A program made the position numbers and the translations under genes. Below, one piece after another: positions 12,803 to 30,632 of a stretch of DNA of 32,000 nucleotides (its first letter is position 1; each line of letters opens with the position of its first letter). Below the pieces are notes generated by a model, which saw only the letters and a list, made by a program, of their open reading frames with translations, was not told the DNA's origin and did no database searches. This stretch comes from Bacillota bacterium (lineage in GTDB: Bacteria; Bacillota; Bacilli; Bacillales; Bacillaceae_I), in NCBI GenBank assembly GCA_051750385.1, contig JBNJJQ010000002.1:289947-321946 (forward strand). The letters are read 5' to 3'.

Positions 12803-12835
12803 AAAAAAAAGAACAAGACTTTTGTCGTCTTGTCC
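12803..12835 (-). terminator. Rho-independent terminator ending the pil operon
   Basis: On the minus strand GGACAAGAC-GACAAAA-GTCTTGTTC is followed by eight T residues. Confidence 0.75.
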
Positions 12836-12897
12836 TAATTGTTTTCCGACACAATCCCCTATGCATTAGGGCTTTCGACTGTTTCCTCGGAAATAAT

Positions 12898-13620
12898 TTA
12901 TTCATTGTCGAGAAATGGATTGGTCTTATTACTCGGTTCCGGTGCAGAGATCGGAGGCAGATCCTCCATCAAGTCCGCTAGCTCCGGATGATAAAACGCT
13001 GATAACTGAACCGAATATGTGAGTGACGTCAATTCCTGTGCAATGGAAGTCAGTTCGGGAAGTCCAGTGAAAGCAACCGATTCGATTTGAGTGATTCGCG
13101 TCAACCCTTCCAATTCCTCAAGGAAGGTAGTTAGATCTTCATAGTTCTCGGACTCGACGGATAAATTGACGGTTACCTTCTTTAACCCTTCAGGCAAGTA
13201 GGCTTGTTCCGTTTGTTGTTCTTCTGTGCTGTCCGTGGTTGTAGTGCTGTTCACTTCCACGTACTCATCCAGGGTAGTAGTCGCTGAAAAATCCGCATCA
13301 CCAAAAGTCATATTCATGATTCTTGAATTGGAGACCACTTCCGCTTTCTCGAGTTCGAGAATCAGCTGCTCGACATAGGAGGTGACAGGTATCTTCCGCT
13401 GGAGTTCCATTGTATTTCCCAACCCTGTTCCAGCTGATTCCTGCTGCTGATCCAGGACTTGAATCAATTGCTCCTCAATTTCAATTTCCTGCTTTTTCTG
13501 CTCCACCATTGTCTGTTTAGGTGCGTAGCTTAAATAGTAGAAAAGGATGATTCCCATTACGAGCAATGCTACAACAGAGGCAAAGATGATGTAGTGCTTT
13601 CTCTGCAGTTCAATGATCAT
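12898..13620 (-). CDS. pilO: Type IV pilus assembly protein PilO-like
   Basis: It has a single N-terminal TM segment, a coiled-coil segment and a C-terminal alpha/beta region. It is translationally coupled to pilN by a 4-nt overlap. The assignment rests on position and architecture. Confidence 0.6.
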   Translation of the reverse strand: MIIELQRKHYIIFASVVALLVMGIILFYYLSYAPKQTMVEQKKQEIEIEEQLIQVLDQQQESAGTGLGNTMELQRKIPVTSYVEQLILELEKAEVVSNSRIMNMTFGDADFSATTTLDEYVEVNSTTTTDSTEEQQTEQAYLPEGLKKVTVNLSVESENYEDLTTFLEELEGLTRITQIESVAFTGLPELTSIAQELTSLTYSVQLSAFYHPELADLMEDLPPISAPEPSNKTNPFLDNE

Positions 13621-14291
13621 AGATCCTCGCCCCCATCCTCTGATTCCGTATCCGTCTCGGTTTCTGTATCTTCTTCATCTGATTCGATTTCTTCAACTTC
13701 AGTTTCCGGAGTTTCCTCTTCCTCAGCCTTTATAGCTGCCTTGTCAAATTCCAAGCTGTACTGCGCGATATAACGAGGCAATACATCAGCATCCTCTTCC
13801 TCACCGACAGTGGTGGTGGTAACGCTAGAGAGATTGACATTCTCGAAATAGCTGTTCCCGTTCAGATGATACAGGTAATAGGCTGCGTCTTTGGATTGAT
13901 CGAATTGCACCGTTACATTCAATGCTCCGCTCTCTGCATAGGAGAAGCTTTGAACAAACCCACGGCTCGGAAGCATCCTTACAAGCTCCTGCATGACAGG
14001 AACCATTTCCACTGGATATTCCTCTGCCCATTGAACCGTATTCTCCAAGCGCTGAGCGGAGGAAGAGTTCTTAGGTGTTCGTATGGATTCTTCTTTTGTT
14101 GCACGCAATGCCTGGACATTTTCGAGGCCTCTTTCAGCCCTCAAGACATCCTGGCTGACAAGATGCTGAAAGATTACTAGAAGAATAACCACAAAAAGAA
14201 CAAAGAATCCGCAAATTCCATAAACAAGAGGAGTCGTAATGTTACGCGCCTGTTTTCTTGGCAATAGATTTATATCTACTAACGTTTTCAT
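13617..14291 (-). CDS. pilN: Type IV pilus assembly protein PilN, with an acidic C-terminal tail
   Basis: The N-terminus VDINLLPRKQ is the INLLP PilN signature. One TM segment follows. The gene lies directly after pilM. Confidence 0.8.
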   Translation of the reverse strand: MKTLVDINLLPRKQARNITTPLVYGICGFFVLFVVILLVIFQHLVSQDVLRAERGLENVQALRATKEESIRTPKNSSSAQRLENTVQWAEEYPVEMVPVMQELVRMLPSRGFVQSFSYAESGALNVTVQFDQSKDAAYYLYHLNGNSYFENVNLSSVTTTTVGEEEDADVLPRYIAQYSLEFDKAAIKAEEEETPETEVEEIESDEEDTETETDTESEDGGEDL

Positions 14292-14293
14292 TC

Positions 14294-15274
14294 CTACACC
14301 TCTTTTAACGCTAACCCGAGTGGAAAATAATACTTAGGGTCAACAACCTCTTGGTCTTGTGTATAAACATCCTGCTCATATGTATCAACCGGGACTGTAA
14401 TCCGTTCTCTCAGTTTTGCCAATACCAATGGGGAGTTAGGATGATCCCCATATAGGAGAACTCTCTTTACTTCATCGGTCCCTTGGTTCAAGGAATAACG
14501 GAAGAAGTTCATGATCCGTTCCACTTCTTTGATGAAGTCCTCCAAAAATACGTTAAACTGAATAATATCTCCGGCCCACTCCATTCTCGTATTTGTCTCT
14601 GACACTTCCCATGTCTTAATGTCGGCTGGGATGGCGATGGTTCTGACGAATACAGGAGCATGCTTCATGAAAATACTAAGCGTGATGCAGCTGATATCAA
14701 AATGAATGATTAATAGATGGTCATTCTCATTTCGTTGTCCGAACTCATAATAAAGTCGGTACAGACAAAGGGAAGAAACATCCGCCACAGTCGGCTTCAT
14801 TTTGTTTTCTTCAAAAATGGAAGACACCTGCGTGACCATTTCCTCCGGTGAAGCGAAAAGAACAAGGTCCGTTTTCTCGGAACGCTGAAGAACATGAACG
14901 TCAAAGACCGGATCTTCAAATGGAAGGTGAATGGTCGAACCAAGCTCCAGATACAGGTGTCCGATAATCTCGTCATCCATCACATTCGAAGGGATGCTAA
15001 GCTTTCTTGTTACCACAAACTGATCCGGAACGACAAATCTTACATGCTTCCGCTTCAATCCCCATTCTTCCACACATTCCTCGAAAATGAGACGAAAGAT
15101 ATTTTCATCGACAATCTTCCCATCACGCACGATGTTCGGCGGCAAAAATCGCTCCTTTGTGCGCTTGACCGTCAAAGGATTCAAACTCTTCAACTCTACC
15201 ATTCTAATAACATGGTCACGAAACGTAATATTTATAAAATTATTATGTTTTGGTTGTAAAAACGAAAATTCCAT
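14294..15274 (-). CDS. pilM: Type IV pilus assembly protein PilM (actin-like ATPase fold)
   Basis: This 326-aa cytoplasmic protein has a PilM-like pattern (RFLPPNIVRDGKIVDENIF..., VPDQFVVTRKLSIP). It is followed by pilN and pilO. Confidence 0.75.
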   Translation of the reverse strand: MEFSFLQPKHNNFINITFRDHVIRMVELKSLNPLTVKRTKERFLPPNIVRDGKIVDENIFRLIFEECVEEWGLKRKHVRFVVPDQFVVTRKLSIPSNVMDDEIIGHLYLELGSTIHLPFEDPVFDVHVLQRSEKTDLVLFASPEEMVTQVSSIFEENKMKPTVADVSSLCLYRLYYEFGQRNENDHLLIIHFDISCITLSIFMKHAPVFVRTIAIPADIKTWEVSETNTRMEWAGDIIQFNVFLEDFIKEVERIMNFFRYSLNQGTDEVKRVLLYGDHPNSPLVLAKLRERITVPVDTYEQDVYTQDQEVVDPKYYFPLGLALKEV

Positions 15275-15298: not shown

Positions 15299-16078
15299 CT
15301 AGAAGAGTAGAGAAAAGTACAGGTTCAAGATTTTCTCGCCTACAAAATAACTGATGAGCGCCGCCACTGCAATCGATGGTCCAAACGGAAACGGTACACC
15401 CTTTTTCACTTTGCCGAACAGCATTCCAGTAAGGGCTACAATCATCCCTACCAATGATGCGAGAAAGAATGTAAGGATCACCATCTTCCATCCCAATACA
15501 AATCCCAGGACAGCAAACAGCTTGATATCCCCTCCACCCATGCCTCCTTTGGAAAGCATGGCAACAAGTGCTGGAATCGCAAAACCTACCGCCAGTCCAA
15601 TCAGATGATTCGGTAGGGTCTGATACGGAATGAAAATTCTTTCAAAAATGAATAAAAGAAAGAAGAATAACAGTATCTTATTTGGAATGAGCATATAGTG
15701 AATATCAGTAATGACGATGATAATCAGCATCGAAATGAGGGTCCAAGCAATGACCAGCTCATATGTCCACCCCATCAATAATGGTGCAAGGACAAACAGC
15801 ACAGCCGTCAATAGCTCGAATAATGGATAAATAGGAGACACGGTATGTTTACAGTACCGACATCTCCCCTTGGAAAATACATATGAAAGGACGGGAATCA
15901 AATCAATCCCCGTCAATGTCTGTTTACAGCTTGTACAATGTGACCTCGGTGCCACGATTGACATGCCCTTTGGAATTCGAAGGCCGACTACGTTGTAGAA
16001 GGAGCCTAGGAGGAGGGCTGTGATGAAAATCAAGATATTATAAGGAGTATAAATATCAATCTGAAGAAGATGTATCAT
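15299..16078 (-). CDS. pilD: Prepilin peptidase / N-methyltransferase (A24 family; PilD/ComC)
   Basis: LGSFYNVVGLRIP, the CTSC...CRYC zinc cluster, ITDIHYMLIPN and GGGDIKLF (the two catalytic Asp) are present. It is closely collinear with B. subtilis ComC. The start is uncertain: ATG 16078 is preferred and TTG 16096 is the maximal ORF. Either start overlaps the 3' end of pilA. Confidence 0.9.
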   Translation of the reverse strand: MIHLLQIDIYTPYNILIFITALLLGSFYNVVGLRIPKGMSIVAPRSHCTSCKQTLTGIDLIPVLSYVFSKGRCRYCKHTVSPIYPLFELLTAVLFVLAPLLMGWTYELVIAWTLISMLIIIVITDIHYMLIPNKILLFFFLLFIFERIFIPYQTLPNHLIGLAVGFAIPALVAMLSKGGMGGGDIKLFAVLGFVLGWKMVILTFFLASLVGMIVALTGMLFGKVKKGVPFPFGPSIAVAALISYFVGEKILNLYFSLLF

Positions 16079-16562
16079 GTACCTGGCCACGTGCAAGTGA
16101 ATTTACACTAACTGCCTTCCCGTCTTCATCTTGTACTCCTCGTGAATTATTAACTAATTTAACTTCTGTAACTTCCCCATTAACAACCTTTACGTAAGAA
16201 ACATTGTTATCTGCTAATTCAGTTTTCTCAACAAGTTCTGAAGAACCCCTTTTATAACTAGTATCTGAACCATCAGGATCCTTTACTATATCTAAGAACT
16301 TACCTTTTTCTAGATAATCTAATGTTAGAAAGAAAGTACCGTCTTTTTGAAGATTCGCATCTCCAGCGACAGCTAACTTTGCAGAACTAACCATCTGCTG
16401 AGCATTCGCAACATGCGCATCCTTTTTACTATTATCTATCAAACCACCGATACTAGGCACGGCAATAGCAGCAATAATCCCCAAAATAACAACAACAGCA
16501 AGTAACTCGATCAATGTTAACCCTTTTTCGTTGCGTAAAATGTTTCTACATTTTTGTAACAC
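16056..16562 (-). CDS. pilA: Type IV major pilin (prepilin-type N-terminal cleavage/methylation domain)
   Basis: The leader MLQKCRNILRNEKG is followed by LTLIELLAVVVILGIIAAIAVP, with Gly-1 and Glu+5. It is the only short pilin gene adjacent to pilC and pilD. The GTG start follows GGGAGG. Confidence 0.85.
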   Translation of the reverse strand: MLQKCRNILRNEKGLTLIELLAVVVILGIIAAIAVPSIGGLIDNSKKDAHVANAQQMVSSAKLAVAGDANLQKDGTFFLTLDYLEKGKFLDIVKDPDGSDTSYKRGSSELVEKTELADNNVSYVKVVNGEVTEVKLVNNSRGVQDEDGKAVSVNSLARGQVHDTSSSD

Positions 16563-16660
16563 TTTTAATTTTCCTCCCTTTTTGGAAATATGTAGTAATT
16601 CTTTATCTACTATAATTCTATTATACTAGACAACAAATTTCAATAAGAATCTACAGCATT

Positions 16661-17869
16661 TTATGACTGAATGTGGTTAAAAATATCGAACATTGGAACT
16701 AGTATTGACGTGACTATAGTCCCGACAATAATTGCCAGTAAGACAATCATTAATGGCTCTATTAAACTTTTTAATCGGTCCGTTGCGTTGTCGACTTCTT
16801 TTTCATAGAACTCGGCGATTTTATCCAGCATGACATCGAGTGAACCTGTACTTTCTCCAATGGAAATCATTTGTGTCACAAGTGGCGGGAATGCCCAGTG
16901 TGCTTTCATGGGAGTTGTTAGGGACTCCCCTTTTTCTAAAGCTCCCCTTGCATCTTCCAATACTTTCGCGATCACTTCATTTTCGGCAATTTTTTCAACG
17001 ATAGAGATTGCCTGTAAAATTGGAACGGAGCTGGATAGCAGCGAGCTGAGTGTTCTAGTCAGCCTTGCAATAGAAGCCTTTTGCAAAAGCTTTCCGAATA
17101 TAGGTAGTCGCAAAAGGAAATAGTCAAGGTAGTATTTGAACTGTTTTTGCTTTCTTGCAAGTGTTAGTCCAAGAACTACTCCACCAAAAAATAGTATGAC
17201 CTGCCACCAATATACCTGCATCCATTCACTTGAACCTAATACAAACCGCGTAATCAACGGTAGTTCTGCTCCAAAGTCGGAGAACATCGCAACAAAGGTC
17301 GGGACTACTCCGACTAGCAAGAAAATGATAACAGCAATTGCAATCACCCCTAATACAAGAGGGTAAGTCAATGCTGAAATAATTTTCTGCTTCGTTTCGT
17401 GCTGCTTTTCGAATTGTGTGGCCAAACGGTCCAGCGTATCGTCAATCGCTCCACTTGCTTCACCGGCTTTTATCATATTGACAAACATAGCAGAGAAAAT
17501 TTTAGGGTATTTGGCAGCAGCATATGAAAGGGAGTTACCTTGCCTTAACTCCTCTTCTACATCCAGAAGCGTGCGTTTGAGAATCTTGCTTTCTGTCTGA
17601 TGGGCGAGTACGTTCGTTGCTTCTACTACAGGAACGCCTGCCCTGATCAAGGTAGAGAATTGACGTAAAAATACTACAAAGTCACGCAGCTTTACAGGAT
17701 TTCCTATTGTAATTTCCTTGGTGAAAATAGATTCAGGCACCTCATCCATTTGCAGAACTCTTATTCCTTCATCCCTTAGCTTAATAAAGGCTTCTCTTCT
17801 AGAGGCACTGATGACCGCACCTTCTCTTTTTCCACTTTTATCTCTTCCAACATACTTAAATTTAGGCAT
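16661..17869 (-). CDS. pilC: Type IV pilus platform protein PilC (GspF family)
   Basis: This 402-aa protein has a duplicated T2SS-F domain architecture with three TM segments. The N-terminus MPKFKYVGRDKSGK is typical of PilC. Confidence 0.92.
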   Translation of the reverse strand: MPKFKYVGRDKSGKREGAVISASRREAFIKLRDEGIRVLQMDEVPESIFTKEITIGNPVKLRDFVVFLRQFSTLIRAGVPVVEATNVLAHQTESKILKRTLLDVEEELRQGNSLSYAAAKYPKIFSAMFVNMIKAGEASGAIDDTLDRLATQFEKQHETKQKIISALTYPLVLGVIAIAVIIFLLVGVVPTFVAMFSDFGAELPLITRFVLGSSEWMQVYWWQVILFFGGVVLGLTLARKQKQFKYYLDYFLLRLPIFGKLLQKASIARLTRTLSSLLSSSVPILQAISIVEKIAENEVIAKVLEDARGALEKGESLTTPMKAHWAFPPLVTQMISIGESTGSLDVMLDKIAEFYEKEVDNATDRLKSLIEPLMIVLLAIIVGTIVTSILVPMFDIFNHIQS

Positions 17870-18911
17870 TATAGCTGACCGACTCCTGTAAAAAACTTTC
17901 CGCTGATATTTTAGATATTTGACCAGATTGGATCATTTCTTTTATATTCATTTCCAACGTATGCATACCTTGAGCTCGACTGGTCTGCATGACGTTTTGG
18001 ATTTGATGAATCTTTTCATTTCTTATCAGATTCCCAACAGCTGAGTTATTGATAAGGATTTCTGTTGCCACTTTCCTGGATTGTTTGTCTATAGATGGAA
18101 ACAATCGTTGAGAAATTATAGCCACAAGAACAGAAGCCAATTGAATCCGGATCTGTGGCTGCTGTGGACCAGGGAAGACGTCGATTATACGGTCAATTGT
18201 TGAAGGTGCACTTGTTGTGTGCAAAGTTCCAAGGACAAGATGTCCCGTTTCTGCAGCAGTAATAGCTGTCTGGATTGTCTCTAAATCTCTCATTTCCCCA
18301 ACCAAAATCACATCCGGATCCTGACGTAAGGAAGCACGTAACCCGTTTGCAAAAGATTTTGTATCAAAGCCGACCTCTCGTTGATCAATCATACATAAAT
18401 TATGCTTATGTAAGTACTCAATCGGGTCTTCTAGTGTAATAATATGTTTTTTGCTTGTACGATTCATAAAATCGATCATGGAAGCTAGTGTCGTAGACTT
18501 ACCGCTCCCTGTTGGTCCTGTCACCAGAATAAGTCCTTGCGGCTTTTCCACCAATTTTTGAAGTATTGTTGGAAGATCCAATACTTCTAAACTTGGCACA
18601 CTAGTAGGTATAATTCGAATGGCAAGCGCAATAGAGGATCTTTGTTTGTACGCATTGACCCTGAATCTAGAAATCCCGGGCAAACTGTAGGAAAAGTCCA
18701 ACTCTCCTTTATCCTCAAACGTCGACCACATAAAATCCGGAATCATTTCCTTCGCAATTTCAAGCGTATCCTCCGGCATTAGGATGGAGTCGCCGTACCG
18801 CTTTAAATCTCCATTAATCCGAAAAACAGGTGCAACCCCAACTGACAGATGAATATCCGATGCTTTATATTCATAAGCTGCATGCAGCCAATCTTGTAGT
18901 TTATTTATCAT
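17862..18911 (-). CDS. pilT: Type IV pilus retraction ATPase PilT
   Basis: ASDIHL, Walker A GPTGSGKST, the Asp box, Walker B ILVGEMRD and the His box GHLVLGTLHT are present. At about 350 aa with no N-terminal extension, it fits PilT. Confidence 0.92.
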   Translation of the reverse strand: MINKLQDWLHAAYEYKASDIHLSVGVAPVFRINGDLKRYGDSILMPEDTLEIAKEMIPDFMWSTFEDKGELDFSYSLPGISRFRVNAYKQRSSIALAIRIIPTSVPSLEVLDLPTILQKLVEKPQGLILVTGPTGSGKSTTLASMIDFMNRTSKKHIITLEDPIEYLHKHNLCMIDQREVGFDTKSFANGLRASLRQDPDVILVGEMRDLETIQTAITAAETGHLVLGTLHTTSAPSTIDRIIDVFPGPQQPQIRIQLASVLVAIISQRLFPSIDKQSRKVATEILINNSAVGNLIRNEKIHQIQNVMQTSRAQGMHTLEMNIKEMIQSGQISKISAESFLQESVSYNA

Positions 18912-18919
18912 AGTTTCAC

Positions 18920-20587
18920 CTATTCTTGTAAGGCAACACGCAGAATTTCTTCTGTCGTGGTTAGTCCTTGTATTACTTTCATCAGTCCGTCATCGATTAG
19001 AAATACGGTATCATGTTCCGCTGCTAGTTCACGAATTTTTGAAATTGGTTGATTGTTCATAACCACTTTTCTCATTTCATCGTTGATTACCAGTAATTCA
19101 TGGATGGCAATCCGGCCTTTGTATCCAGTCATATTACATGTGCCGCATCCCTTGCCACGCGATATTTTCTCAATGGTTAAGCCTCTTTTCGCAAAAATTT
19201 CTCTCTCACGGACAGTCGGCTCATCCTGCTTCATGCAATCCCGGCACACTTTCCGTACTAATCGTTGAGCAATTACACCATTTACAGAAGAAGCCACAAG
19301 AAAAGGTTCCACTTTCATATCTATTAGTCTTGTAACAGTACTGATCGAATCATTTGTATGAAGTGTACTTAATACGAGATGTCCAGTAAGTGACGCTCGT
19401 ATCGCTACTTCTGCCGTTTCTTTGTCCCGGATCTCCCCTACCATGATGATGTTTGGATCTTGGCGGAGAATAGCTCTGAGCCCCTTGGCAAATGACATAC
19501 CGACGTTTGTGTTCACCTGAATCTGATTGATGCCTTCAAGCTGGTATTCCACAGGGTCTTCCACTGTGATGATATTCACTTCTTCACTATTCAAATGGTT
19601 CAATGCTGCATATAAAGTGGATGATTTCCCTGAACCGGTTGGTCCTGTAATTAGAATAATGCCTGTTGGCTTGGTGATAAGCTCAATAAATCTCCCATAG
19701 TTCTTCGGGTTAAATCCCAATTGAGATAAATCATTTAATGTACTGCTCATATCCAATATACGCATTACCACTTTTTCCCCGTACACCGTCGGAAGAGTGG
19801 ACACACGGACATCCACTGGGTGATAATCAATATTTGTCTTGATTCGGCCGTCCTGAGGTACACGATGCTCTGTGATATCCATATTCCCAAGGATTTTAAT
19901 TCTTGCTATCAGGACATTTTGAGTATGCTTCGGTAAAGTCCTTTCGGTTTTCAAAACTCCATCAACACGATATCTTACGACAACTTTTGTTTCCTGAGGA
20001 TCGATATGTACGTCACTCGCACGTTGTTGCACAGCATTTTGGAGGATCTGATTGACTAAACGGACAACCGGCGAGTCATCTTCCGTAATCCTTTCATCCT
20101 CGATTTTTACCGAGGATACAGGCTCCAGAATATCCATAAACTCATCTATGGCATCAGTTACCTCATAGTATTTGTTGATGGAACGCAGAATATCATCCTT
20201 TGTTGCAATGACAGGTTCTATTTCAAAGCCTGTTGAAAGGCGTAAATCGTCTATCGAAAAATAGTCCATTGGATCTGCCATCGCCACATACAATTTATCC
20301 TGTTCTTTTTTTATCGGAATCAATAAATTCCGCTTTGCAAAATCTTTTGAAATGACATGCATTAGTTTTTCATCAAACGGGTACCGGTACAAACTTACAT
20401 GAGGTATTCCTAACTGGAATTCCAGCACTTCAATCAATTGTTGTTCAGTAATGTACCCTTTTTGAAGTAATGCATCCCCAAGCTTTTGACCCTTTATCTT
20501 TTCTTCCAATGTCAAGTGAAGCTGTTCCGATGTTATAATACCTGCATCAACTAATAGGTCACCTAATCTTTTCCGTGTATCGTTCAT
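18920..20587 (-). CDS. pilB: Type IV pilus assembly ATPase PilB (GspE family) with N-terminal T2SSE_N/MshEN-like domain
   Basis: Walker A GPTGSGKSS, Walker B IMVGEIRD and GHLVLSTLHT are present, as is the tetra-Cys motif CRDC...CGTC. The N-terminus contains RLGDLLVDAGIITSEQL...KLGDALLQKGYITEQQL. ATG 20587 is preferred because AAAGGA lies 8 nt upstream. ATG 20596 abuts the RBS. Confidence 0.93.
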   Translation of the reverse strand: MNDTRKRLGDLLVDAGIITSEQLHLTLEEKIKGQKLGDALLQKGYITEQQLIEVLEFQLGIPHVSLYRYPFDEKLMHVISKDFAKRNLLIPIKKEQDKLYVAMADPMDYFSIDDLRLSTGFEIEPVIATKDDILRSINKYYEVTDAIDEFMDILEPVSSVKIEDERITEDDSPVVRLVNQILQNAVQQRASDVHIDPQETKVVVRYRVDGVLKTERTLPKHTQNVLIARIKILGNMDITEHRVPQDGRIKTNIDYHPVDVRVSTLPTVYGEKVVMRILDMSSTLNDLSQLGFNPKNYGRFIELITKPTGIILITGPTGSGKSSTLYAALNHLNSEEVNIITVEDPVEYQLEGINQIQVNTNVGMSFAKGLRAILRQDPNIIMVGEIRDKETAEVAIRASLTGHLVLSTLHTNDSISTVTRLIDMKVEPFLVASSVNGVIAQRLVRKVCRDCMKQDEPTVREREIFAKRGLTIEKISRGKGCGTCNMTGYKGRIAIHELLVINDEMRKVVMNNQPISKIRELAAEHDTVFLIDDGLMKVIQGLTTTEEILRVALQE

Positions 20588-20620
20588 TGTGGTCATCCTT
20601 TACGTTGCAAATTAGTTGGT

Positions 20621-22438: not shown

Positions 22439-22477
22439 ATTCGCACCACTTTTCTATATTTTTTACAAAATTTGTAG

Positions 22478-22506: not shown

Positions 22507-22525
22507 AAATATAGGTAATTTGAAA
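22497..22525 (-). promoter_or_regulatory. Candidate divergent promoter of the pilB-side operon
   Basis: The minus strand reads TTTCAA (22525..22520), a 17-nt spacer, then TACAAT (22502..22497). This -10 element physically overlaps the plus-strand TATAAT. Confidence 0.3.
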
Positions 22526-22539
22526 TAGGAGAATCATAG

Positions 22540-23247: not shown

Positions 23248-23890
23248 ATTAAAAGATGAACAAGGTGTTACTCTTTATGAATTGCTGGCAGTGCTAGTTA
23301 TTAGCGGAGTTGTGTTGAGCTCCATTTACGGAGTCTTTATAACCGGGGTAAACCTATATAAAAAAATTGGAATTGAGAGTCAACTTAAAGAAGAGGCAGA
23401 TATTATTGTTGCCACAGTTTTGAACGAGTTTTACGCCTATTCTCCTGATGATGTGGAATATAATGCAAATAGTAATGAGTTGATATTAGCCAAGTTCAGA
23501 CAGGTCGAGATTAGCGATAAAGACTTTGTAACATCTACCTTTGACAAAGATGAGATGAACCGTAAGGCTATTATTCGCATCAACGACTCTCTTTCATCGG
23601 TCGGTAAAGATGTTTTCCTTGATACGAAAGAAATACCAGAAGACAGTGAACCAGATTTGATTGAAAAAACATTAAAGATTAATAATGAAAAATACCTTTT
23701 GTTACCTGTGCAAGATAGCACGGGCAGCGATTTGCCTATCATCGATTTTACCTGTACCTCCCATTCAAAATCACAGTGCAATGGGGGCATTGTTTCTTTT
23801 CATTTTCAAATCGCACATGAAAACTATAGCGATAAAGCCAATAGATTGTATGTGGAACCGATAGAATTTTATAGTCAATTCGGCTTTTAA
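23231..23890 (+). CDS. Minor pilin (prepilin-type N-terminal domain, Val+1)
   Basis: MKLFDRLKDEQG is followed by VTLYELLAVLVISGVVL, with Gly-1 and Glu+5. The RBS AAGGAG is present. It overlaps the upstream gene by 17 nt. Confidence 0.75.
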   Translation: MKLFDRLKDEQGVTLYELLAVLVISGVVLSSIYGVFITGVNLYKKIGIESQLKEEADIIVATVLNEFYAYSPDDVEYNANSNELILAKFRQVEISDKDFVTSTFDKDEMNRKAIIRINDSLSSVGKDVFLDTKEIPEDSEPDLIEKTLKINNEKYLLLPVQDSTGSDLPIIDFTCTSHSKSQCNGGIVSFHFQIAHENYSDKANRLYVEPIEFYSQFGF

Positions 23891-23908
23891 GTAGAATGAG
23901 GTGTACCA

Positions 23909-25636
23909 ATGAATGAAAAAGGATCCAGTTTATTAGTAGTACTTATTACAGTCTCGATTTTTATGATACTTGGAGTTTCCATATTAACCGTGGCACTAGG
24001 TGGAGCTTTGAGAACACAAATCCAGTTAGATCGCTATGAAAACATTTATGAAGGAAAAGAACAACTGGATTTTGTTATTTCTAGATTTAAAGAAGAAGTC
24101 ATAAATATCCCCCTCAATACAGAAGATCTTCCTCATGAATATCAAAATCGGTTGGACCAAGCTTTAAATAGTTTAGCCGCTTACGAAAACTTCAATGCCG
24201 AGGATATGACAGAAACCTATGTCGCTGATAAAAGTGAATTATTCACAAGAGTATACGAGTTTTCAATTGTGGCTGGTGAAGGGAATGCGAAAAAAACAAT
24301 AAAAAAACAAGTCATATTATCACCTGCTCCAAGTTTCCTGGATTATGCCCTCGGCTCCTTTGGTGAAGGTGATGACGAAGGATTATTACTGGTAAACGGG
24401 TCACCAAATGTGGATGGGGATGTCATTGCCAACAATCTGCATATTAAAAATGAAGCTGAGTTTATTGATCAGGATGGAGAGAATACTGCCTCTACACCAT
24501 TCCCCGCAATTAGCGGAAACATTAATATTCAAAAGATGTTGAGCCTTTGGGATACCAAGACCTTACAACCTATAAAATTTACAGCTGAACATTTGCAAAC
24601 CGATCAGATTCTTTCCAGCTTCTTTTATAACTTCATCAAGCCTGATATCTATTCAAGGTCTGAAGATTTTGTAGATGTTAACTTTGATCAAACATATCTT
24701 GATAAACTAAATGAACTTCTAGTTTTGCCGAGCAGCTCTGTTACTTCTGATGAACTGTTGGATGACAATTCATTAAATGAAATCCGAAACAAGATAGCTC
24801 AACAATTACCTGAAAGTAATTTACCTCCTGATTTGATTGAAAACGATATTTTATTGGATGCAGGGACAATTAATAGTATCCCCGGGCGAATCGTCTACCA
24901 TGATTCAGTTCAGGTATACAGTGCTATCGAGCAAATTAACATCAATAAGCCAATGGTGATAAATGGAGATTTAACTCTCACTTCCGGACTAAACAACCCA
25001 ATTTCCATTACCCAGCCACTGACCGTAATTGGGGACCTTACTATTAATATTACAGACACTCCAATTGATATTAGTGGGACTGTCATTGTATTCGGCGACC
25101 TGATAATAAATGGTAACGAAGAGGCGGTTGGAAGCGGTGCAGAGAACGATACGATAAAATTTGATTCGACCATCTATACATGGGGAAGCAGCTATATATC
25201 TAATACAAATATTGAAGGTATTGACCAAGAAAAACAACTGGTTCTCTTTTCAAAAGGCGAATTGACTATTACCAGAATAAATGAATTCCGTAGATTTTCC
25301 ATGGAACAAGATAACCAAAATATCTATGATCTAGGTAATGAAACCATTCCTTTAAAAGCATTCTTTTATACAGAAAATAATGCAACTTTATACGGGGTAG
25401 GTTCCATGTTTCACATTAATGGAGGATTATTTGCCAAGAAAACGTTAGAGATAAATGCCATACGAGGCAATATCAATCGAAGTAATACACTAACACCTCT
25501 TTCAGATCAATTTCAACTTAATAAGAAAACTCGTTTTCAAATTGTACATGATCCGAATGTTCTTGTCAGTCAGGTGTCAAGGTTGCCTGTGGCTGATCGT
25601 CTAAGAGTTATCGTAAGTGAAACTTCCATTAAATAA
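23909..25636 (+). CDS. Large PilX/GspK/PilK-like minor pilin lacking Glu+5, with a repetitive beta-rich C-terminal region
   Basis: MNEKG is followed by SSLLVVLITVSIFMILGVSILTVALGG, a hydrophobic PilX_N-like N-terminus with Val at +5. It is the third gene of the minor-pilin operon. The RBS GAGGTG is present. GD(L/V)xI-type repeats recur (NGDLTLT, VIGDLTINIT, VFGDLIING). Confidence 0.6.
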   Translation: MNEKGSSLLVVLITVSIFMILGVSILTVALGGALRTQIQLDRYENIYEGKEQLDFVISRFKEEVINIPLNTEDLPHEYQNRLDQALNSLAAYENFNAEDMTETYVADKSELFTRVYEFSIVAGEGNAKKTIKKQVILSPAPSFLDYALGSFGEGDDEGLLLVNGSPNVDGDVIANNLHIKNEAEFIDQDGENTASTPFPAISGNINIQKMLSLWDTKTLQPIKFTAEHLQTDQILSSFFYNFIKPDIYSRSEDFVDVNFDQTYLDKLNELLVLPSSSVTSDELLDDNSLNEIRNKIAQQLPESNLPPDLIENDILLDAGTINSIPGRIVYHDSVQVYSAIEQININKPMVINGDLTLTSGLNNPISITQPLTVIGDLTINITDTPIDISGTVIVFGDLIINGNEEAVGSGAENDTIKFDSTIYTWGSSYISNTNIEGIDQEKQLVLFSKGELTITRINEFRRFSMEQDNQNIYDLGNETIPLKAFFYTENNATLYGVGSMFHINGGLFAKKTLEINAIRGNINRSNTLTPLSDQFQLNKKTRFQIVHDPNVLVSQVSRLPVADRLRVIVSETSIK

Positions 25637-25640
25637 TAGG

Positions 25641-25680
25641 AAAGAGGACAACCCTTTTGTATACTTGGGTTGTCCTCTCT
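25641..25680. terminator. Bidirectional terminator between the convergent minor-pilin operon and the vWA gene
   Basis: A 12-bp stem AGAGGACAACCC (25643..25654) pairs with GGGTTGTCCTCT (25667..25678). Both sides are flanked by T-rich sequence on the relevant strand. Confidence 0.7.
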
Positions 25681-25683
25681 TTA

Positions 25684-28635
25684 TTACCACCTGTAATTAT
25701 TTCCTGGGTTACTTATATCGTCTTCACCATTTCCAATAATGACCATTGTGGTTGCACGTATATTTCTGTCTTCTTTTGATGTTGCAGTAACAAATACAAC
25801 TCCTGGGGAAATACCTCTGCCTTTACCGTTTTGATCGATATAAAATTTGTCAGGCAAATCAACGGACCACTCAACCTCTATCTTATTTTTTAGCTGAGGA
25901 GGGTCAAATCTTAATTGGCCTTGTAGACTATTCAACGGTTGATTTACTTTTACGTAATAATAAGGTTTATGGAACGACATTGTATAGTTTGGAAAATCCA
26001 AAATTTTCATTTGGGCTTGCTCACTTATTTGGGACCCATTGATTGAAGCTGTTATTGATACTTCTCCTGTTTTTTTTGCCGTGACGACTCCATTGTTGTT
26101 AACAGAAGCGATACTGTTATCACTGGAATTCCAATTTATTAATACATCAGATAGTGTATCTGTCGTCTCTAAAATCGCTTCAATGGTCTGAGTATCTCCA
26201 ATATACATTTCATTTGAATAATTTAATGATAGATCAGATATTCCATTGAAGTTTATAATCAATTCATCTTCAAAAGAATTTCGAATGAACCCACCTGAAG
26301 CTTTCACTTGGAATTTGGATGTTCCAAGATCATTCAATTCAGCAATAATATCCTCAGGGTTTATCGTTCTCCAGTTAGAATAATTCGTTCTATTTGGCGT
26401 TTTTGTTCGTACCTCATAGACAGCTGTTCCTCCAGTCACGAATTGGTTAAAAAATATTTTCACAGCTTGATTTACGATATACTGCCCATTTTCTACTGGA
26501 AAAACAACCTCATCACTACTACTCAATACTACAGCAACAGTAGGAATTAAGGGTAAAAATACATTACTAATTCCATGGAATTTGATTATTATACTACTTT
26601 TCTCTTCATCGAACTCCATGAATTCCACAGGAATTAATATCGGGTTTCCCCCAGCATCTTTTAAGGTGGTAGAAGCTAACAGTTGTCCAGAATCTCGGAC
26701 ATATTTACTGATATTTCCGGACTGATTACCCCTATACTCTACAGTGGGCTGGACATCAAGATCAATTAATTTAATGACCATTTCTACCAATTCATTAAAC
26801 CGTGAACTAACATTTGCTTTTAATTGTGCATTTGGTCTAGACGAATCCTTAAATTCAATTGATGGGTCAGGTAAAGCTTGTGCGTTTAGACTATGAATAC
26901 CCCGTAATTCAAGTGAGGTTTGCAGTTGTTCTTCAGAAAATATTAAGTTCCCATTTTTTGTTTCATAAGTTAATTGTTTTATAGGAATAAGAATCTCTTT
27001 CGAACCATCTGGGAAGATTGTTTCAGTCATACCAGATCCTAGTTTAGAACTTAACCCCGCTGGAATCCTCTGTCTGAGTTGAACATCACTTAAATTCCCT
27101 TTGCTTCCTGAAGGCAACTTTCCATAAGGTTTAATAGTATAGATAATGTTGAAAGTGTCTTTATTTTCAGTCATAATATTAGATTTTTGCAATTTAATCG
27201 TATTATCTTTAATTGGTGCCGTAGTTGAGAACTGCATGTCCAGTTCGAAAGATGGTGCCACTTGGTTTTGTACAGAAACCTTTATCTCTTCTTTATAGAC
27301 CATAATCTGGTCAATACCTTCTATATCTTTATATTTTAATTTCACTTCAAAAAAATAGTCTCCATTAGAGTTAAACTCTATTGGAAGATTCGGCACAGAT
27401 ACCACACCAGGACCCACACCTACTTCATACTTAACATTTCCATTAGCTGGAGTAACAATAGCATACTTGATACCATTTCGAGTTTCCACTTTAATTCCAT
27501 CAGAGCCTTCTACCCTTACACCACTTGGAATTTTAACTTCAAGGGATACTTCGGAAAGAGATGGTGTTTCTATTTCTCTCACTAATGATTCAAATATTTC
27601 ATTCAGATTACTGCCGGATGCTATCCTTGCCATTGATATATTATTACTCGTTTTACTTGCTAATTTATCAAGATATGTTTTGCTGGCCTCACCGAATCCT
27701 ACTGGATAAAGAATCGTATCTCCATTCCTTATTAAACTGGAAGTATCTTCTGCGTGATTTTCTACATATGCTTTAGCATGATTTGAAAAAACAATGGTGT
27801 TATTGTTATGTTTAAAACTTCTTTTCGATATTCCTGAACTTCCATTAGAATATACAATAAACTCGGTAGTGATATTCTCTTTGTGGTTTTTTAATAAATC
27901 ATATGAATAATCTTCATACTTATTGTCACAAAAAATCCACCAGCAATCTTGAATTTCTTTTTGATATTTTCCTCTTGGTATGTCCTTAGTTTTCAGGACT
28001 GTTGGTTCACCATCTGTTAAAAAAATTATAACTTGGTCTCTATTTTCATCTGAATTATTGCTTAAAATTTCTTTCGCCTTAATCAATGAGTCGCTATAGT
28101 TTGTTCCAGTTTCTAAACTTCCTTCAGGTGCCACAATTTCTTTAACAACTTCAGCAATTTCATTTACGTTTTTCGTCAAAGCATTCCCATCAAAGTTACT
28201 TACTACAGCATTACTGTTAAACTCAACTAACCCGAAACGATCCTTGTTGACTCTATTGGCATTTGCCTCACTGAAAATCGTAGCAGCAGTTTGCATTGCC
28301 TCCTTAGCACGGTCTAACCTGGAAGTCTTTTTATCTATTTCAAAATTCATGGATGCTGATTTATCAAAAACAAAAACCACATCCAAAGGCTTCCTTGGAT
28401 TTTCGGTAAGCATTCCGTTCCGCATCACTTCGAAATTCAGGGATGTTCTAGCTATGTTCTGACTTCCTTCTTTTTGCAATATCAGTTCTTTTCTTGCCGG
28501 TTCCACTTTATTTATTGATAATGAGAGTTGGTCTTGGTTAGTTGTGTTATTGGTGAGGGCTATTGTTGGGGCTAATCCAGAAAGCATAATATGTATGATA
28601 AGTATTCCTATCACAAAACTCCTTACGTTCTTCAT
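25684..28635 (-). CDS. Large secreted vWA (MIDAS) domain protein with two C-terminal Big_2 Ig-like domains
   Basis: A Sec-type signal peptide is present (MKNVRSFVIGILIIHIMLSGLAPTIALT). The vWA domain has a complete MIDAS (VVFVFDKSASM = DxSxS; GTNYS; FLTDGEPT). There is a long beta-rich middle region. Two Big_2-like segments lie near the C-terminus (e.g. INWNSSDNSIASVNNNGVVTAKKTGEVSITA). No LPXTG motif and no prepilin motif are present. Confidence 0.85.
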   Translation of the reverse strand: MKNVRSFVIGILIIHIMLSGLAPTIALTNNTTNQDQLSLSINKVEPARKELILQKEGSQNIARTSLNFEVMRNGMLTENPRKPLDVVFVFDKSASMNFEIDKKTSRLDRAKEAMQTAATIFSEANANRVNKDRFGLVEFNSNAVVSNFDGNALTKNVNEIAEVVKEIVAPEGSLETGTNYSDSLIKAKEILSNNSDENRDQVIIFLTDGEPTVLKTKDIPRGKYQKEIQDCWWIFCDNKYEDYSYDLLKNHKENITTEFIVYSNGSSGISKRSFKHNNNTIVFSNHAKAYVENHAEDTSSLIRNGDTILYPVGFGEASKTYLDKLASKTSNNISMARIASGSNLNEIFESLVREIETPSLSEVSLEVKIPSGVRVEGSDGIKVETRNGIKYAIVTPANGNVKYEVGVGPGVVSVPNLPIEFNSNGDYFFEVKLKYKDIEGIDQIMVYKEEIKVSVQNQVAPSFELDMQFSTTAPIKDNTIKLQKSNIMTENKDTFNIIYTIKPYGKLPSGSKGNLSDVQLRQRIPAGLSSKLGSGMTETIFPDGSKEILIPIKQLTYETKNGNLIFSEEQLQTSLELRGIHSLNAQALPDPSIEFKDSSRPNAQLKANVSSRFNELVEMVIKLIDLDVQPTVEYRGNQSGNISKYVRDSGQLLASTTLKDAGGNPILIPVEFMEFDEEKSSIIIKFHGISNVFLPLIPTVAVVLSSSDEVVFPVENGQYIVNQAVKIFFNQFVTGGTAVYEVRTKTPNRTNYSNWRTINPEDIIAELNDLGTSKFQVKASGGFIRNSFEDELIINFNGISDLSLNYSNEMYIGDTQTIEAILETTDTLSDVLINWNSSDNSIASVNNNGVVTAKKTGEVSITASINGSQISEQAQMKILDFPNYTMSFHKPYYYVKVNQPLNSLQGQLRFDPPQLKNKIEVEWSVDLPDKFYIDQNGKGRGISPGVVFVTATSKEDRNIRATTMVIIGNGEDDISNPGNNYRW

Positions 28636-28676
28636 CTTAACCTACCCTTCTAGTTATATTTTCCTATATATCTACA

Positions 28677-28712
28677 ATTATATCAGAACATTTTTCAAAA
28701 AATACTATTTTA
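28677..28712 (-). promoter_or_regulatory. Candidate promoter of the vWA gene (extended -10)
   Basis: The minus strand reads TGA-TATAAT (28685..28677), about 40 nt upstream of ATG 28635, in an AT-rich intergenic region that follows a terminator. No convincing -35 element is present. Confidence 0.3.
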
Positions 28713-28766
28713 TATGTAAATATTGTTTCTTTCTACAATATTTTCAACTTTGATTTCTTCAAAGCT

Positions 28767-28810
28767 GAAAAAACATAAAAGGAGCTTTCCGATAAATGGA
28801 AAGCTCCTTC
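28767..28810 (-). terminator. Rho-independent terminator downstream of the GGDEF gene
   Basis: The stem AAGGAGCTTTCC (28779..28790) pairs with GGAAAGCTCCTT (28798..28809). On the minus strand it is followed by TTTTATGTTTTTT. Confidence 0.75.
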
Positions 28811-28813
28811 TTT

Positions 28814-30550
28814 TTACGACGTCTTCCTATACTCAGCCACCTTATTCCGCCCGGCCTGCTTCGCACCGACATACATCGCACGGTCTGCATGGCGGATAAG
28901 ATCCAGTGTATCCTCTGCATCATCCGGTGCTGTCGCAAAGCCGATGCTTGCTGTAACTTTGACAAGCTGAACGGTATGGGAATCCCGGATGTGCTGCTTC
29001 AACGCGAAGGACCTGTTGGCAAGGTTGACTCTGATTCTTTCTGCAAGCTCAAAGCATTTGCCTCTGTCCATATCTGGAAGTAGGATGACAAATTCCTCTC
29101 CCCCGTATCTTGCAACAGTGCCAGCTTCCCCCACGATCCCTACAAGTCGATCTGCCACTTGCTTCAGTATTTCATTACCGCTTTGGTGGCCGTATATATC
29201 ATTTATTTTCTTGAAGTGATCCAAATCTAGAAGAATCAGGGATAATGATGAAAGATCCCCTTTGTCCAAGCTGGCATACTCTTTTTCCAGTACACTTTCA
29301 AAATAGCGATAATTATAAAGTTTCGTCAGGGCACAACGTTCACTTTTTCGCTTTGTCTCTTGATAATGGCGGGCCTTTTCCATTGCTACCCCGAAGTACG
29401 AGGCCAGGATATCCGCAATCATCAGCTGGGATTTATCATACGACCTTTTAGTGGTGCTTGCTAGTACGACGATTCCCTCAATCTTTTGATTTCGAGATAC
29501 CGGGACACACATGACACTTTGAAGGGAAGGATGCAGATGCGTGTTTGCAAAATGCTTCCATTCCTTTCTCGTAAGATAGCATTGGCTTTTTCCCCGTTTT
29601 AATATATAGGACAAAAGTTCCTCGTTATCTATATTCATTTCGGTATTGACTGCCACAAAATTCTGGTTGTCGATCACGCGTAGAATCTTCAAGGTACTTT
29701 CTCCATTTACATCTACAATTGCTGCATAATCCACAGGAAACAGGGTCGATACCTTGTCCAGGAAGACATCAAGCACCCCTTGAGTATCCAAGCGCTCGGT
29801 TAATTGGTGTCCGATGCCGGCTGCCTGCTGAAGGTAGTTATTCACTTTCTGACTGGAATGATAGAGCTGCAGAATCAAGGTTAATACAACAAAAGGCAGT
29901 CCTACATAGAATGTGGCAACGATTCCTAACTGTTCATACAGGACATATAGACTCAGACCAACAGGCAATACAATTATGCTTGTAATGGCTTCCCATTTGG
30001 TATCAGTGGTGATAAATTTGCTTTCACGTTTATAAATGAACACCTGAATCATATACAAGGCGATGGAGTTCAGGGTGAAATACATAAGTTCATGGGAAAG
30101 GATCGGCACGATGACACCTGGCTGCAGAAGCTTTGTGTCACCATGTCCTCCGCCAAGTGCATAATAGACAAATCCGCAAATGAGCGAAATGGTGGAAAAC
30201 ATTAATAGATTGATAGGGATTCTAAGAAGATTGTCCTTGCTCACTCTTATTTTAAGCATCAGCGCTATGACGGAGATGAGGGTAAGGACCATTTCCGCAA
30301 ATAGGCCAAATGAGAGCAGGATGGCAAGTGACACTCCCTGAGTCAGAAACAGCGGAACCTCTCCCACCACGATCGGGATGAGGGCAAGTATGATCAGCAA
30401 GATCGCAAACCCTACAAGATGAAGCAAGGGCAGTTCCTCTATCGCAATAGGAGAAAGCTGATAACCTACCCACAGATTCAATGGAAAAAATAAAAAGAAG
30501 CATGTCCAAATCATCGCTTTCGTAGTCCCATTTACCGCACGAGCTACCAT
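28814..30550 (-). CDS. Membrane-bound diguanylate cyclase (multi-TM sensor + GAF-like + GGDEF)
   Basis: The GGDEF domain carries DLDHFKKINDIYGH and ARYGGEEFVILLP (intact A-site). About 8 predicted TM helices lie at the N-terminus, and a GAF-like segment sits in the middle. ATG 30550 is preceded by AGGGAGGGG. The ORF-track start at 30613 lies inside the promoter. Confidence 0.9.
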   Translation of the reverse strand: MVARAVNGTTKAMIWTCFFLFFPLNLWVGYQLSPIAIEELPLLHLVGFAILLIILALIPIVVGEVPLFLTQGVSLAILLSFGLFAEMVLTLISVIALMLKIRVSKDNLLRIPINLLMFSTISLICGFVYYALGGGHGDTKLLQPGVIVPILSHELMYFTLNSIALYMIQVFIYKRESKFITTDTKWEAITSIIVLPVGLSLYVLYEQLGIVATFYVGLPFVVLTLILQLYHSSQKVNNYLQQAAGIGHQLTERLDTQGVLDVFLDKVSTLFPVDYAAIVDVNGESTLKILRVIDNQNFVAVNTEMNIDNEELLSYILKRGKSQCYLTRKEWKHFANTHLHPSLQSVMCVPVSRNQKIEGIVVLASTTKRSYDKSQLMIADILASYFGVAMEKARHYQETKRKSERCALTKLYNYRYFESVLEKEYASLDKGDLSSLSLILLDLDHFKKINDIYGHQSGNEILKQVADRLVGIVGEAGTVARYGGEEFVILLPDMDRGKCFELAERIRVNLANRSFALKQHIRDSHTVQLVKVTASIGFATAPDDAEDTLDLIRHADRAMYVGAKQAGRNKVAEYRKTS

Positions 30551-30603
30551 ACTAACCCCTCCCTTCCTACCTAGTTTTCTCAATAAAATATTGCAATAAC
30601 GTA

Positions 30604-30632
30604 ATTTTATCAAATTTTCTAAACTTTGTCAC
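30604..30632 (-). promoter_or_regulatory. Sigma-A type promoter of the GGDEF gene
   Basis: The minus strand reads GTGACA (30632..30627), a 17-nt spacer, then TGA-TAAAAT (extended -10, hexamer at 30609..30604). Confidence 0.55.

Follow-up and report, generated by a model that had tools for sequence, protein, structure and literature searches.

A type IV pilus gene set with recurrent accessory genes in the folC-spoIIB slot of Bacillaceae

In Bacillus subtilis, ComC is the prepilin peptidase for the ComG pseudopilus. A core pil operon was described in Bacillales in 2011 (Bacillus sp. NRRL B-14911, Geobacillus and Exiguobacterium; PMC3244431), and clostridial type IVa pilus clusters (pilA1-pilB1-pilC1-pilMN-pilO-pilV-pilU-pilK-pilT-pilD in Clostridioides difficile; Clostridium perfringens) offer a second frame of comparison. 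In a review of monoderm type IV pili (T4P), their passage across the cell wall is called unexplained; the only published suggestion that we found is the speculation that the long streptococcal PilO is involved (PMC6916266). Here, we analyse a stretch of 32,000 nucleotides from a Bacillota bacterium, a spore-forming relative of Bacillus (contig JBNJJQ010000002.1; the whole stretch is referred to as the window). It carries a full PilT-equipped T4P gene set in the slot between folC and a spoIIB-like gene, as the first-pass annotation of this DNA had claimed. A six-frame map of open reading frames (ORFs) combined with Pfam and NCBIfam scans places every gene named in that annotation at 12.8-30.6 kb, and core motifs and Pfam matches agree with the assignment.

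The gene order is folC, GGDEF, vWA/Big_2, three divergent minor pilins, a protein with two transmembrane segments (2-TM), VanW/G5, pilB-T-C-A-D-M-N-O, spoIIB-like, maf, radC and mreB (Table 1). The main genes are on the minus strand, while the three pilin-like genes are on the plus strand (22540-25636), where they diverge from the pil operon and converge on the vWA gene. We consider it probable, though well short of certain, that the locus encodes a monoderm type IVa pilus, the Bacillaceae version in its ancestral folC-spoIIB slot, with accessory roles in wall passage, adhesion and cyclic diguanosine monophosphate (c-di-GMP) input as originally proposed. All functional statements made here are derived from sequence and gene neighbourhood. 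The core system is of a known kind, with textbook pilus machinery. New are the accessory genes shared across the lineage, in particular the Cys-less VanW/G5 protein that accompanies pilB, the cassette behaviour of the locus and the evidence for a reductive origin of comC.

The Walker boxes and the tetracysteine motif of PilB are intact in the translation. The pilT gene follows directly after pilB, and PilT contains the Walker A sequence GPTGSGKST and the motif AVGNLIRNE, which is AIRNLIRE-like; the protein is conserved at 61-93% in all loci compared below (tblastn). PilD retains its two catalytic Asp motifs together with the CxxC pairs. Class III signal peptides (G/xTLxE) with N_methyl matches are present in PilA and in the first two minor pilins (mp1 and mp2), and PilM (1e-16) and PilN (5e-6) score above their Pfam cut-offs. 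This core of PilB/C/D/M/N and major pilin, with a protein in the PilO position, is shared with the clostridial clusters and with the Bacillales operon (PMC3244431), as are the presence of PilT in the operon and of a minor-pilin trio that includes a large Glu5-less member. The MshEN-like N-terminus of PilB has counterparts in C. perfringens and Paenibacillus (10.1101/2022.01.24.477451). Unlike in these clusters and operons, the minor-pilin genes of the window form a divergent operon, pilB is preceded by genes for the 2-TM protein and a VanW/G5 protein without Cys, and vWA/Big_2 and GGDEF genes flank the set. PilT and a full-length major pilin are both present and conserved, which suggests a true retractile pilus. 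The N-terminus of PilN reads MKTLVDINLLPRK; INLLP is the PilM-binding motif typical of diderm PilN. The motif reported for Streptococcus sanguinis PilN, (MILF)N(FYW)FS, differs from that of the window protein (PMC6916266).

Next, the layout was compared across genomes. A PilB scan using one genome per species gave 274 relatives that were confirmed. The 80 best loci among them, which represent more than 20 genera, were compared by means of tblastn with all 20 window proteins and ORF maps (individual loci carry L numbers). The genomes nearest to the window are Sutcliffiella. The loci come from Sutcliffiella, Robertmurraya, Neobacillus, Niallia, Metabacillus, Cytobacillus, Peribacillus, Mesobacillus, Rossellomorea, Fredinandcohnia, Litchfieldia, Priestia koreensis, Domibacillus, Jeotgalibacillus and Evansella, among others. 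Essentially every locus that reaches far enough shows pilB-T-C-A-D-M-N-O followed by spoIIB-like-maf-radC-mreB. In most loci, a minor-pilin trio, consisting of two pilins of ∼150 amino acids (aa) and one Glu5-less protein of 300-800 aa, occupies the interval from GGDEF to VanW; as a rule it is encoded on the opposite strand. Additional look-ups in Alkalihalophilus pseudofirmus, Fictibacillus, Geobacillus (right half only) and one more contig (L082, L084, L085 and L087) gave the same arrangement, the A. pseudofirmus slot being without GGDEF and without minor pilins. Four accessory genes, 2-TM, VanW/G5, vWA/Big_2 and GAF-GGDEF, recur together with the core across genera. Because the same order recurs in the survey and in the look-ups, the layout is a regular Bacillaceae architecture and no peculiarity of the window genome. 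The first-pass annotation had not recognised the accessory combination as a described system; the combination is common in Bacillaceae and not special to the window, and the core was published in 2011 (PMC3244431).

The VanW/G5 gene is located directly upstream of pilB in 77 of the 79 informative loci. In the window it is on the same strand as pilB with a gap of 24 nucleotides (nt), and the gene is found beside pilB in every inspected context of the family. The 2-TM gene and the Cys-free VanW/G5 gene form a conserved pair next to pilB in these loci and also in Alkalihalophilus, Fictibacillus and another contig. Immediately upstream of VanW there is either a member of the 2-TM family or a PRC-barrel protein (16 of the 32 loci checked), in which case the 2-TM gene is one step further away. 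The PRC-barrel protein of ∼250 aa lies at about 7.6-8.7 kb in L018, L020, L022, L025, L027, L031, L033, L042, L053-L055, L061, L062, L069, L076 and L077; the window has no such gene. The 2-TM protein shares the motif PLG.S.KGK ... P.W with forms of 180-650 aa in other genera (100-650 aa for the family as a whole), and searches of Pfam, NCBIfam and the PDB returned no family for it.

A study from 2024 established VanW domains as L,D-transpeptidases that use a Cys-His-Asp triad and require its Cys; Cys-to-Ala variants of Ldt4 and Ldt5 no longer cross-link but are still partly active as carboxypeptidases (PMC11348318). The domain order of C. difficile Ldt4 is TM-PG4-VanW-G5-disordered tail (PMC11348318). 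The window protein resembles Ldt4 in having a membrane anchor, a VanW domain, a G5 domain and a C-terminal disordered tail, and differs from it in that no PG_binding_4 domain is detected. The VanW assignment exceeds the Pfam cut-off (PF04294, 33.7 bits compared with 27), while the NCBIfam vanW-gen match is far below its own cut-off. In an AlphaFold2 model calculated with 15 sequences (predicted local distance difference test score 84.6), the C-terminal β-domain matches solved G5 domains in a Foldseek search of the PDB (HP0197-G5, PDB entry 4fzq; SasG; Aap; RpfB). The same search matched the G5 part only, and a PDB sequence search with the VanW profile gave nothing significant; this is in agreement with the literature, where the VanW fold is without a solved relative.

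Unlike Ldt4 and Ldt5, the pil-linked VanW family lacks the catalytic Cys, and the His of the ERH motif is variably kept. The window protein contains no cysteine at all, and in two alignments read by hand (15 close and 22 diverse members) any Cys is confined to the membrane helix. About six of the 22 diverse members have another residue in place of the ERH His; Asp265 (D265) is invariant. The absence of a catalytic Cys is judged from this total lack of ectodomain Cys residues and not from a column alignment; a canonical vanW for such an alignment was sought by tblastn of the VanW/G5 core against plasmids, which gave no match. A word-based homologue search with the VanW protein yielded only 16 relatives, and it was an exhaustive profile search that revealed the family, with 2,008 family hits and 413 cluster representatives at E < 1e-30; the latter are ∼430-500 aa long and match end to end. 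As the catalytic Cys is missing, these proteins cannot form the thioacyl intermediate, and we predict that they constitute a sizeable family of pseudo-transpeptidases. By analogy with the Ldt4 and Ldt5 variants, they would at most bind stem peptides or trim them. No paper that ties VanW domains to pili was found in our literature search. Because nearly all Bacillaceae pil loci have the VanW/G5 gene beside pilB, and because it diverges together with the pilins, its product is a concrete and genetically tractable candidate for T4P passage through, or anchoring in, the thick Gram-positive wall.

This divergence is part of a wider pattern, one that the first-pass annotation does not mention. Compared with L001, L004, L005 and L007, nucleotide identity is ∼93% from mreB to ∼16030, at the pilA/pilD junction, and it is 85-90% relative to the closest genomes from the GGDEF stop codon (exactly 28814) through folC. 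Between these points it drops to ∼72% (pilB-T-C) or the sequences cannot be aligned. The similarity to L004 and L007 ends at 28814, such that the GGDEF terminator marks the left edge. Relative to the L004 and L007 proteins, identities are 94-98% for PilD-PilO, 83, 83 and 78% for PilB, PilT and PilC, ∼56% for PilA, 39% for VanW and 37-47% for the minor pilins, and the vWA gene is replaced by one for a different Big_2 protein. PilA is hypervariable (53-68% identity in relatives with PilD-PilO 90-99% identical), and VanW/G5 is 39-63% identical in relatives with PilM-PilO 92-99% identical, as expected for a protein that contacts variable pilins or is exposed at the surface. The G+C content falls from ∼0.44 to 0.30-0.37 over 22-29 kb, the left half of the divergent region. 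Since conserved flanks bracket a divergent interior, the surface-exposed half from pilA to vWA appears to be a cassette that is swapped between lineages by recombination in these flanks. Other bacteria are known to exchange alleles of pilins and minor pilins in this way. A swappable pilus surface may bear on how phage receptors and adhesion vary among bacilli of soil and alkaline habitats.

Within the cassette, the third minor pilin (mp3) is conserved by position in most loci. Over its N-terminal ∼100 residues, hhalign gives an alignment with a PilX_N/DUF7305 protein of L084 (probability 90%, E = 1.4e-6); Pfam and PDB searches returned no family for mp3. The vWA/Big_2 protein consists of a Sec-type signal, a vWA domain with a metal-ion-dependent adhesion site (MIDAS; DxSxS, T, D), an Ig-like region, two Big_2 domains and a C-terminus ending in YRW. 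Its N-terminus, MKNVRSFVIGILIIHIMLSGLAPTIA, is Sec-like and lacks the G/xxxxE motif, and hence there is no pilin module. Positional homologues, taken as large ORFs on the plus strand that face mp3, come from 18 loci; Big_2 is found in 14 and vWA in ten, several of the others being N-terminally cut by the locus edge, and the MIDAS motif is kept in the family consensus. The gene accompanies the long version of the minor-pilin trio, always adjoining it and convergent with it, and converges with mp3 in at least 16 loci; the convergence stated in the first-pass annotation thus recurs across genera. In Sutcliffiella, both the minor pilins and vWA/Big_2 are present in L001, L013, L015 and L016. The L004 protein has Big_2 without a vWA head, and Big_2 proteins occur at the same position in L042 and L055 (Peribacillus and Jeotgalibacillus). 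In these two loci, the Big_2 gene is followed by a gene for an ankyrin-repeat protein of ∼300 aa (L042:2363-3277 and L055:2489-3376); ankyrin repeats are unusual in Bacillaceae.

A profile of the vWA family matches the vWA module of S. sanguinis PilB (PDB entry 7b7p, E = 3.7e-7) and the Porphyromonas gingivalis fimbrial tip protein Mfa5 (1.6e-8). S. sanguinis PilB, a modular minor pilin, has a homologous MIDAS-containing vWA module and is encoded with monoderm pilus genes, as is the window protein (PMC8179133). Unlike S. sanguinis PilB, the window protein is a non-pilin of 983 aa with a Sec-type signal and Big_2 stalk domains; it could be attached to the pilus only indirectly, by non-covalent contacts. 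In all 16 C-termini examined (25684-25700 in the window and 15 homologues), a short linker rich in acidic residues, Gly and Asn leads to a final [RK][WY] dipeptide (RW, KW, EW, KY or RY), which may be a docking or export signal.

Of the 52 loci with folC in view, 44 have a full-length orthologue of the GGDEF gene next to folC. The active-site motif RYGGEEF is intact and there is no RxxD I-site. A possible receiver is PilB, in which residues 10-33 (RLGDLLVDAGIITSEQLHLTLEEK) and 38-61 (KLGDALLQKGYITEQQLIEVLEFQ) are near the tandem 24-residue MshEN c-di-GMP consensus RLGxx(L/V/I)2xxG(L/V/I)2x4Lx3LxxQ (10.1101/2022.01.24.477451). The Pfam MshEN match covers residues 62-147 only.

The first-pass annotation also proposed that the flanks follow the B. 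subtilis order, that pilD is collinear with comC and that comC is an operon remnant, and all three points are supported. In B. vallismortis of the B. subtilis group (L081) the order is valS-folC-comC-spoIIB-maf-radC-mreBCD-minCD, and the slot holds comC only. B. subtilis comC occupies the same folC-spoIIB slot as the window pilD but stands alone, without flanking pil genes. PilD of the window is 44.5% identical to B. subtilis ComC (query sequence 99% identical to a database cluster) and has the same two-domain A24 architecture. Outside the B. subtilis group the best matches of ComC are the slot PilDs of Bacillaceae at ∼50% identity, and its identity to all slot PilDs, 42-50%, is in the same range as that between PilDs of different genera. 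No second PilD/ComC paralogue was seen in the material examined, which did not include searches of whole genomes. A reduced locus is found in the metagenomic contig L086, with the order valS-folC-GAF/GGDEF-peptidase-spoIIB-like-maf and no pil genes. Directly after its comC-like gene (10001-10819), there is a 59-codon ORF (L086:10806-10985) whose product resembles the C-terminal 42 residues of PilO (40% identity; pairwise E = 2e-9), and we interpret this ORF as the deletion scar of a pil operon. This scar and the wide spread of the full operon in the slot make loss in the B. subtilis lineage the better reading. Synteny, similarity and L086 together support comC as a remnant of an ancestral pil operon, of which only pilD would have survived. 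The orphan comC would then have arisen by reductive loss, with one intermediate caught in L086. Piscibacillus salipiscarius (L083) was considered as a further intermediate and rejected, as its peptidase gene is part of another kind of pil cluster at a separate chromosomal site. This cluster appears degenerate in that pilB is split into two ORFs and neither pilT nor a VanW gene is present.

In a working pilus, PilD would mature the pilins and probably those of ComG as well. The PilV-like, the second and the PilX-like minor pilins would prime a PilA filament on PilC and PilMNO, with PilB driving extension and PilT retraction. The gene for the Cys-less VanW/G5 protein would be co-transcribed with pilB, and the protein may bind peptidoglycan stem peptides around the machine without cross-linking them and could anchor the machine or keep a path through the wall open. 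A more specific proposal, that VanW/G5, as a catalytically dead and repurposed L,D-transpeptidase, forms a module with 2-TM that holds stem peptides at the pilus base as a stand-in for the diderm secretin/PilQ-TsaP complex and co-evolves with the pilin cassette, is tentative and on balance doubtful. The vWA/Big_2 protein would be exported by Sec; the minor-pilin tip would either display it or take it along to the outside, where it would act as a metal-dependent adhesin. c-di-GMP, possibly from the neighbouring cyclase, might act on the MshEN-type N-terminus of PilB.

A number of observations weigh against this picture. The PilO-position protein found no family in Pfam, NCBIfam or PDB searches and is assigned by its position, with a weak T2SSM match on the positional equivalent in L087. 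VanW/G5 is not strictly required, since it is absent from both Evansella loci. In a neighbour-joining tree, midpoint-rooted without an outgroup, the subtilis group forms a long branch beside Piscibacillus and Lysinibacillus; slot synteny and similarity favour PilD/ComC orthology, and the tree does not settle the position of ComC. The Sutcliffiella loci L002, L003, L006, L009, L010 and L014 retain VanW-pilB...pilO and lack both the minor pilins and vWA; here either minor pilins are encoded elsewhere or pili are not assembled. The vWA/Big_2 protein has no PilY1/PilC β-propeller domain (Pfam), no pilin module and no sortase signal or wall anchor. Like PilY1, which acts with FimU/PilVWX in Gram-negative type IVa pili, it is a large non-pilin vWA protein encoded beside minor-pilin genes and gained or lost with them. 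Unlike PilY1 it lacks the β-propeller, is unrelated outside the vWA fold and is encoded convergently rather than in the same operon. The vWA domain and the linkage to minor pilins in the original 'PilY1-like tip adhesin' assignment stand, and the resemblance to PilY1 is an analogy, as pilin module, PilY1 domain and sortase motif are all missing. The MshEN-like motifs of PilB deviate from the consensus (the first ends in K instead of Q, R is changed to K and the spacer has four instead of five residues). The GGDEF gene looks monocistronic because it has its own promoter-like site and hairpin terminator, and it lies in the conserved flank outside the cassette. It is missing from eight of the 52 loci and from L082 (Alkalihalophilus), Fredinandcohnia and some others being among the pil loci without it, and it is kept in the pil-less L086 (42% identity to the window GGDEF). 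C. difficile pilA1 carries a c-di-GMP riboswitch. In contrast, no c-di-GMP or other riboswitch was found in the window with Rfam, either in the locus at gathering thresholds or at E ≤ 1 over 12-31 kb, where the only match at that level is a chance snoRNA. Of the 'own promoter, local c-di-GMP input' proposed in the first-pass annotation, the promoter-like site, the terminator and the GGDEF motif were recovered; because of the flank position, the monocistronic appearance and the occurrence of the gene with and without pil genes, a dedicated input, like any functional link of the cyclase to the pilus, is only a proposal. These features of the GGDEF gene, together with the separate promoter region of the vWA gene, would also be expected if some or all accessory genes were mere syntenic neighbours: a general c-di-GMP cyclase, a general wall-maintenance VanW/G5 protein and an independent vWA/Big_2 adhesin. 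We regard this as distinctly unlikely, since VanW/G5 shares the strand of pilB, is separated from it by 24 nt, is present in 77 of the 79 loci and diverges along with the pilin cassette, and since vWA/Big_2 always adjoins the long minor-pilin operon in convergent orientation and is gained or lost with it in Sutcliffiella.

A different role for the whole machine also has to be considered. It could be mainly an exporter resembling type II secretion, in which a short pilus or pseudopilus pushes folded vWA/Big_2 protein, and perhaps others, through the peptidoglycan, vWA being cargo or matrix rather than a tip adhesin. A precedent is the C. perfringens vWA protein BsaC, which has a Sec signal and requires the pilin PilA3 and T4P proteins for secretion (PMC11580942), and the Sec-type signal of the window protein, its lack of pilin module and wall anchor, and its conserved terminal [RK][WY] as a possible export or docking signal would suit such a role. 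We nevertheless consider an exporter unlikely: the conserved PilT and full-length major pilin point to a true retractile pilus, many loci have a complete machine without a vWA/Big_2 gene, and bsaC itself lies outside any pil locus. In many bacteria, DNA is taken up by means of retractile T4P. The competence peptidase ComC has its positional orthologue in PilD, and the pilus might thus be chiefly a competence device, a functional counterpart of comG, instead of an organelle of motility or adhesion. This is highly improbable, as the Bacillales examined carry a separate com operon besides any pil operon (PMC3244431), no DNA-receptor pilin can be recognized, and an adhesin-like vWA/Big_2 partner in a hypervariable surface cassette fits adhesion and surface exposure better.

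Table 1. Features of the pil locus and its immediate flanks in the window
Feature	Position	Strand	Evidence
folC, folylpolyglutamate synthase, upstream conserved flank	30662-31966	-	Pfam Mur_ligase_M/C; 93% aa identity in L004, L007; flank ∼89% nt identity
Promoter-like site of GGDEF gene	30604-30632	-	GTGACA, 17 nt, extended -10 TGaTAAAAT; read from sequence
Multi-TM-GAF-GGDEF diguanylate cyclase, MASE9-like (weak)	28814-30550 (longest ORF to 30613)	-	GGDEF 1.5e-39, GAF_2 4e-8, MASE9 0.007
Strong hairpin terminator 3' of GGDEF gene	28777-28811		14-pair stem and T run; sequence
Divergent cassette pilA-C-T-B, VanW, 2-TM, minor pilins, vWA (∼12.8 kb)	16030-28814		blastn breakpoints versus L001, L004, L005, L007
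vWA/Big_2 secreted protein, 983 aa	25684-28635	-	Pfam VWA_2 5e-14, Big_2 5e-12
Bidirectional hairpin common to convergent mp3 and vWA genes	25644-25673		GGACAACCC...GGGTTGTCC; read from sequence
Large minor pilin mp3, 575 aa, PilX/GspK-like, repeat-rich C-terminal part	23909-25636	+	Glu5-less N-terminus G/SSLLV; no Pfam match
Minor pilin mp2, 219 aa	23231-23890	+	G/VTLYE; N_methyl 0.0012; TIGR02532
Minor pilin mp1, 235 aa, PilV/GspI-like	22540-23247	+	G/FTLLE; N_methyl 2.7e-7; TIGR02523 PilV 1.4e-10, GspI 2.9e-7 (both below cut-off)
A/T-rich divergent promoter region (∼100 bp), mp1 versus 2-TM gene	22439-22539		TTTACA-17-TAAGAT; TGTATAAT; ribosome-binding site AGGAGA before ATG 22540
2-TM protein, 125 aa, short form of conserved family	22061-22438	-	No Pfam or NCBIfam match
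TM-(N-domain)-VanW-G5-Asn/Gly/Ser-rich disordered tail protein	20621-22039	-	VanW PF04294 33.7 bits (cut-off 27), G5 weak in Pfam
PilB extension ATPase (MshEN and T2SSE)	18920-20596	-	T2SSE 1.5e-136, MshEN 1.7e-20
PilT retraction ATPase, 349 aa	17862-18911	-	T2SSE 3.8e-52
PilC platform protein	16661-17869	-	T2SSF 7e-65, two repeats
Promoter-like site of pilA	16615-16643	-	Sequence
PilA major pilin	16056-16562	-	G/LTLIE; N_methyl 1.9e-7
PilD prepilin peptidase/N-methyltransferase	15299-16096	-	A24_N_bact 3.5e-31, Peptidase_A24 1e-22
PilM	14294-15274	-	PilM_2 1.1e-16
PilN, acidic tail	13617-14291	-	PilN 5.3e-6, 26.8 bits (cut-off 22.8)
PilO-position protein (TM and coiled coil)	12898-13620	-	Position; no Pfam match
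Terminator closing pil operon	12810-12836	-	Sequence
SpoIIB-like protein, 381 aa, downstream conserved flank	11603-12748	-	BLASTP versus B. vallismortis SpoIIB: 24% identity over full length, E = 3e-13

The transcription signals were read from the DNA alone and predict four transcription units. Downstream of the promoter-like site of the GGDEF gene, the ribosome-binding site GGAAGGGAGGGG is followed by ATG 30550. The longest ORF begins at TTG 30613, within this promoter-like site, and the true start is probably ATG 30550, giving a protein of 578 aa, the same length as its relatives. The vWA gene is preceded by its own A/T-rich region. The genes from 2-TM through pilO are closely packed, with a single gap of 98 bp before pilA.

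Beyond the SpoIIB-like gene, the window continues with maf, radC, mreB, mreC, mreD, minC, minD, a glycerophosphodiester phosphodiesterase (GDPD) gene, spoIVFA/FB-like genes, an RNase E/G gene and a ribosomal protein L21 leader. The GDPD gene (4746-5726) lies between minD and the spoIVFA-like gene, where B. vallismortis has nothing. The L21 leader (981-1066; Rfam RF00559, 53.5 bits) is upstream of rplU and outside the pil locus. Among the compared loci, an anti-sigma factor gene (Sigma_reg_N/C; L008:6189-7328) stands beside a 168-aa ORF, a presumed extracytoplasmic function sigma factor, and this also occurs in L011, L012, L013, L015 and L016. The pair comes after GGDEF, before VanW in L008, L011 and L012 and ahead of vWA in L013, L015 and L016 (S. 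horikoshii-type loci), and could be a local regulator.

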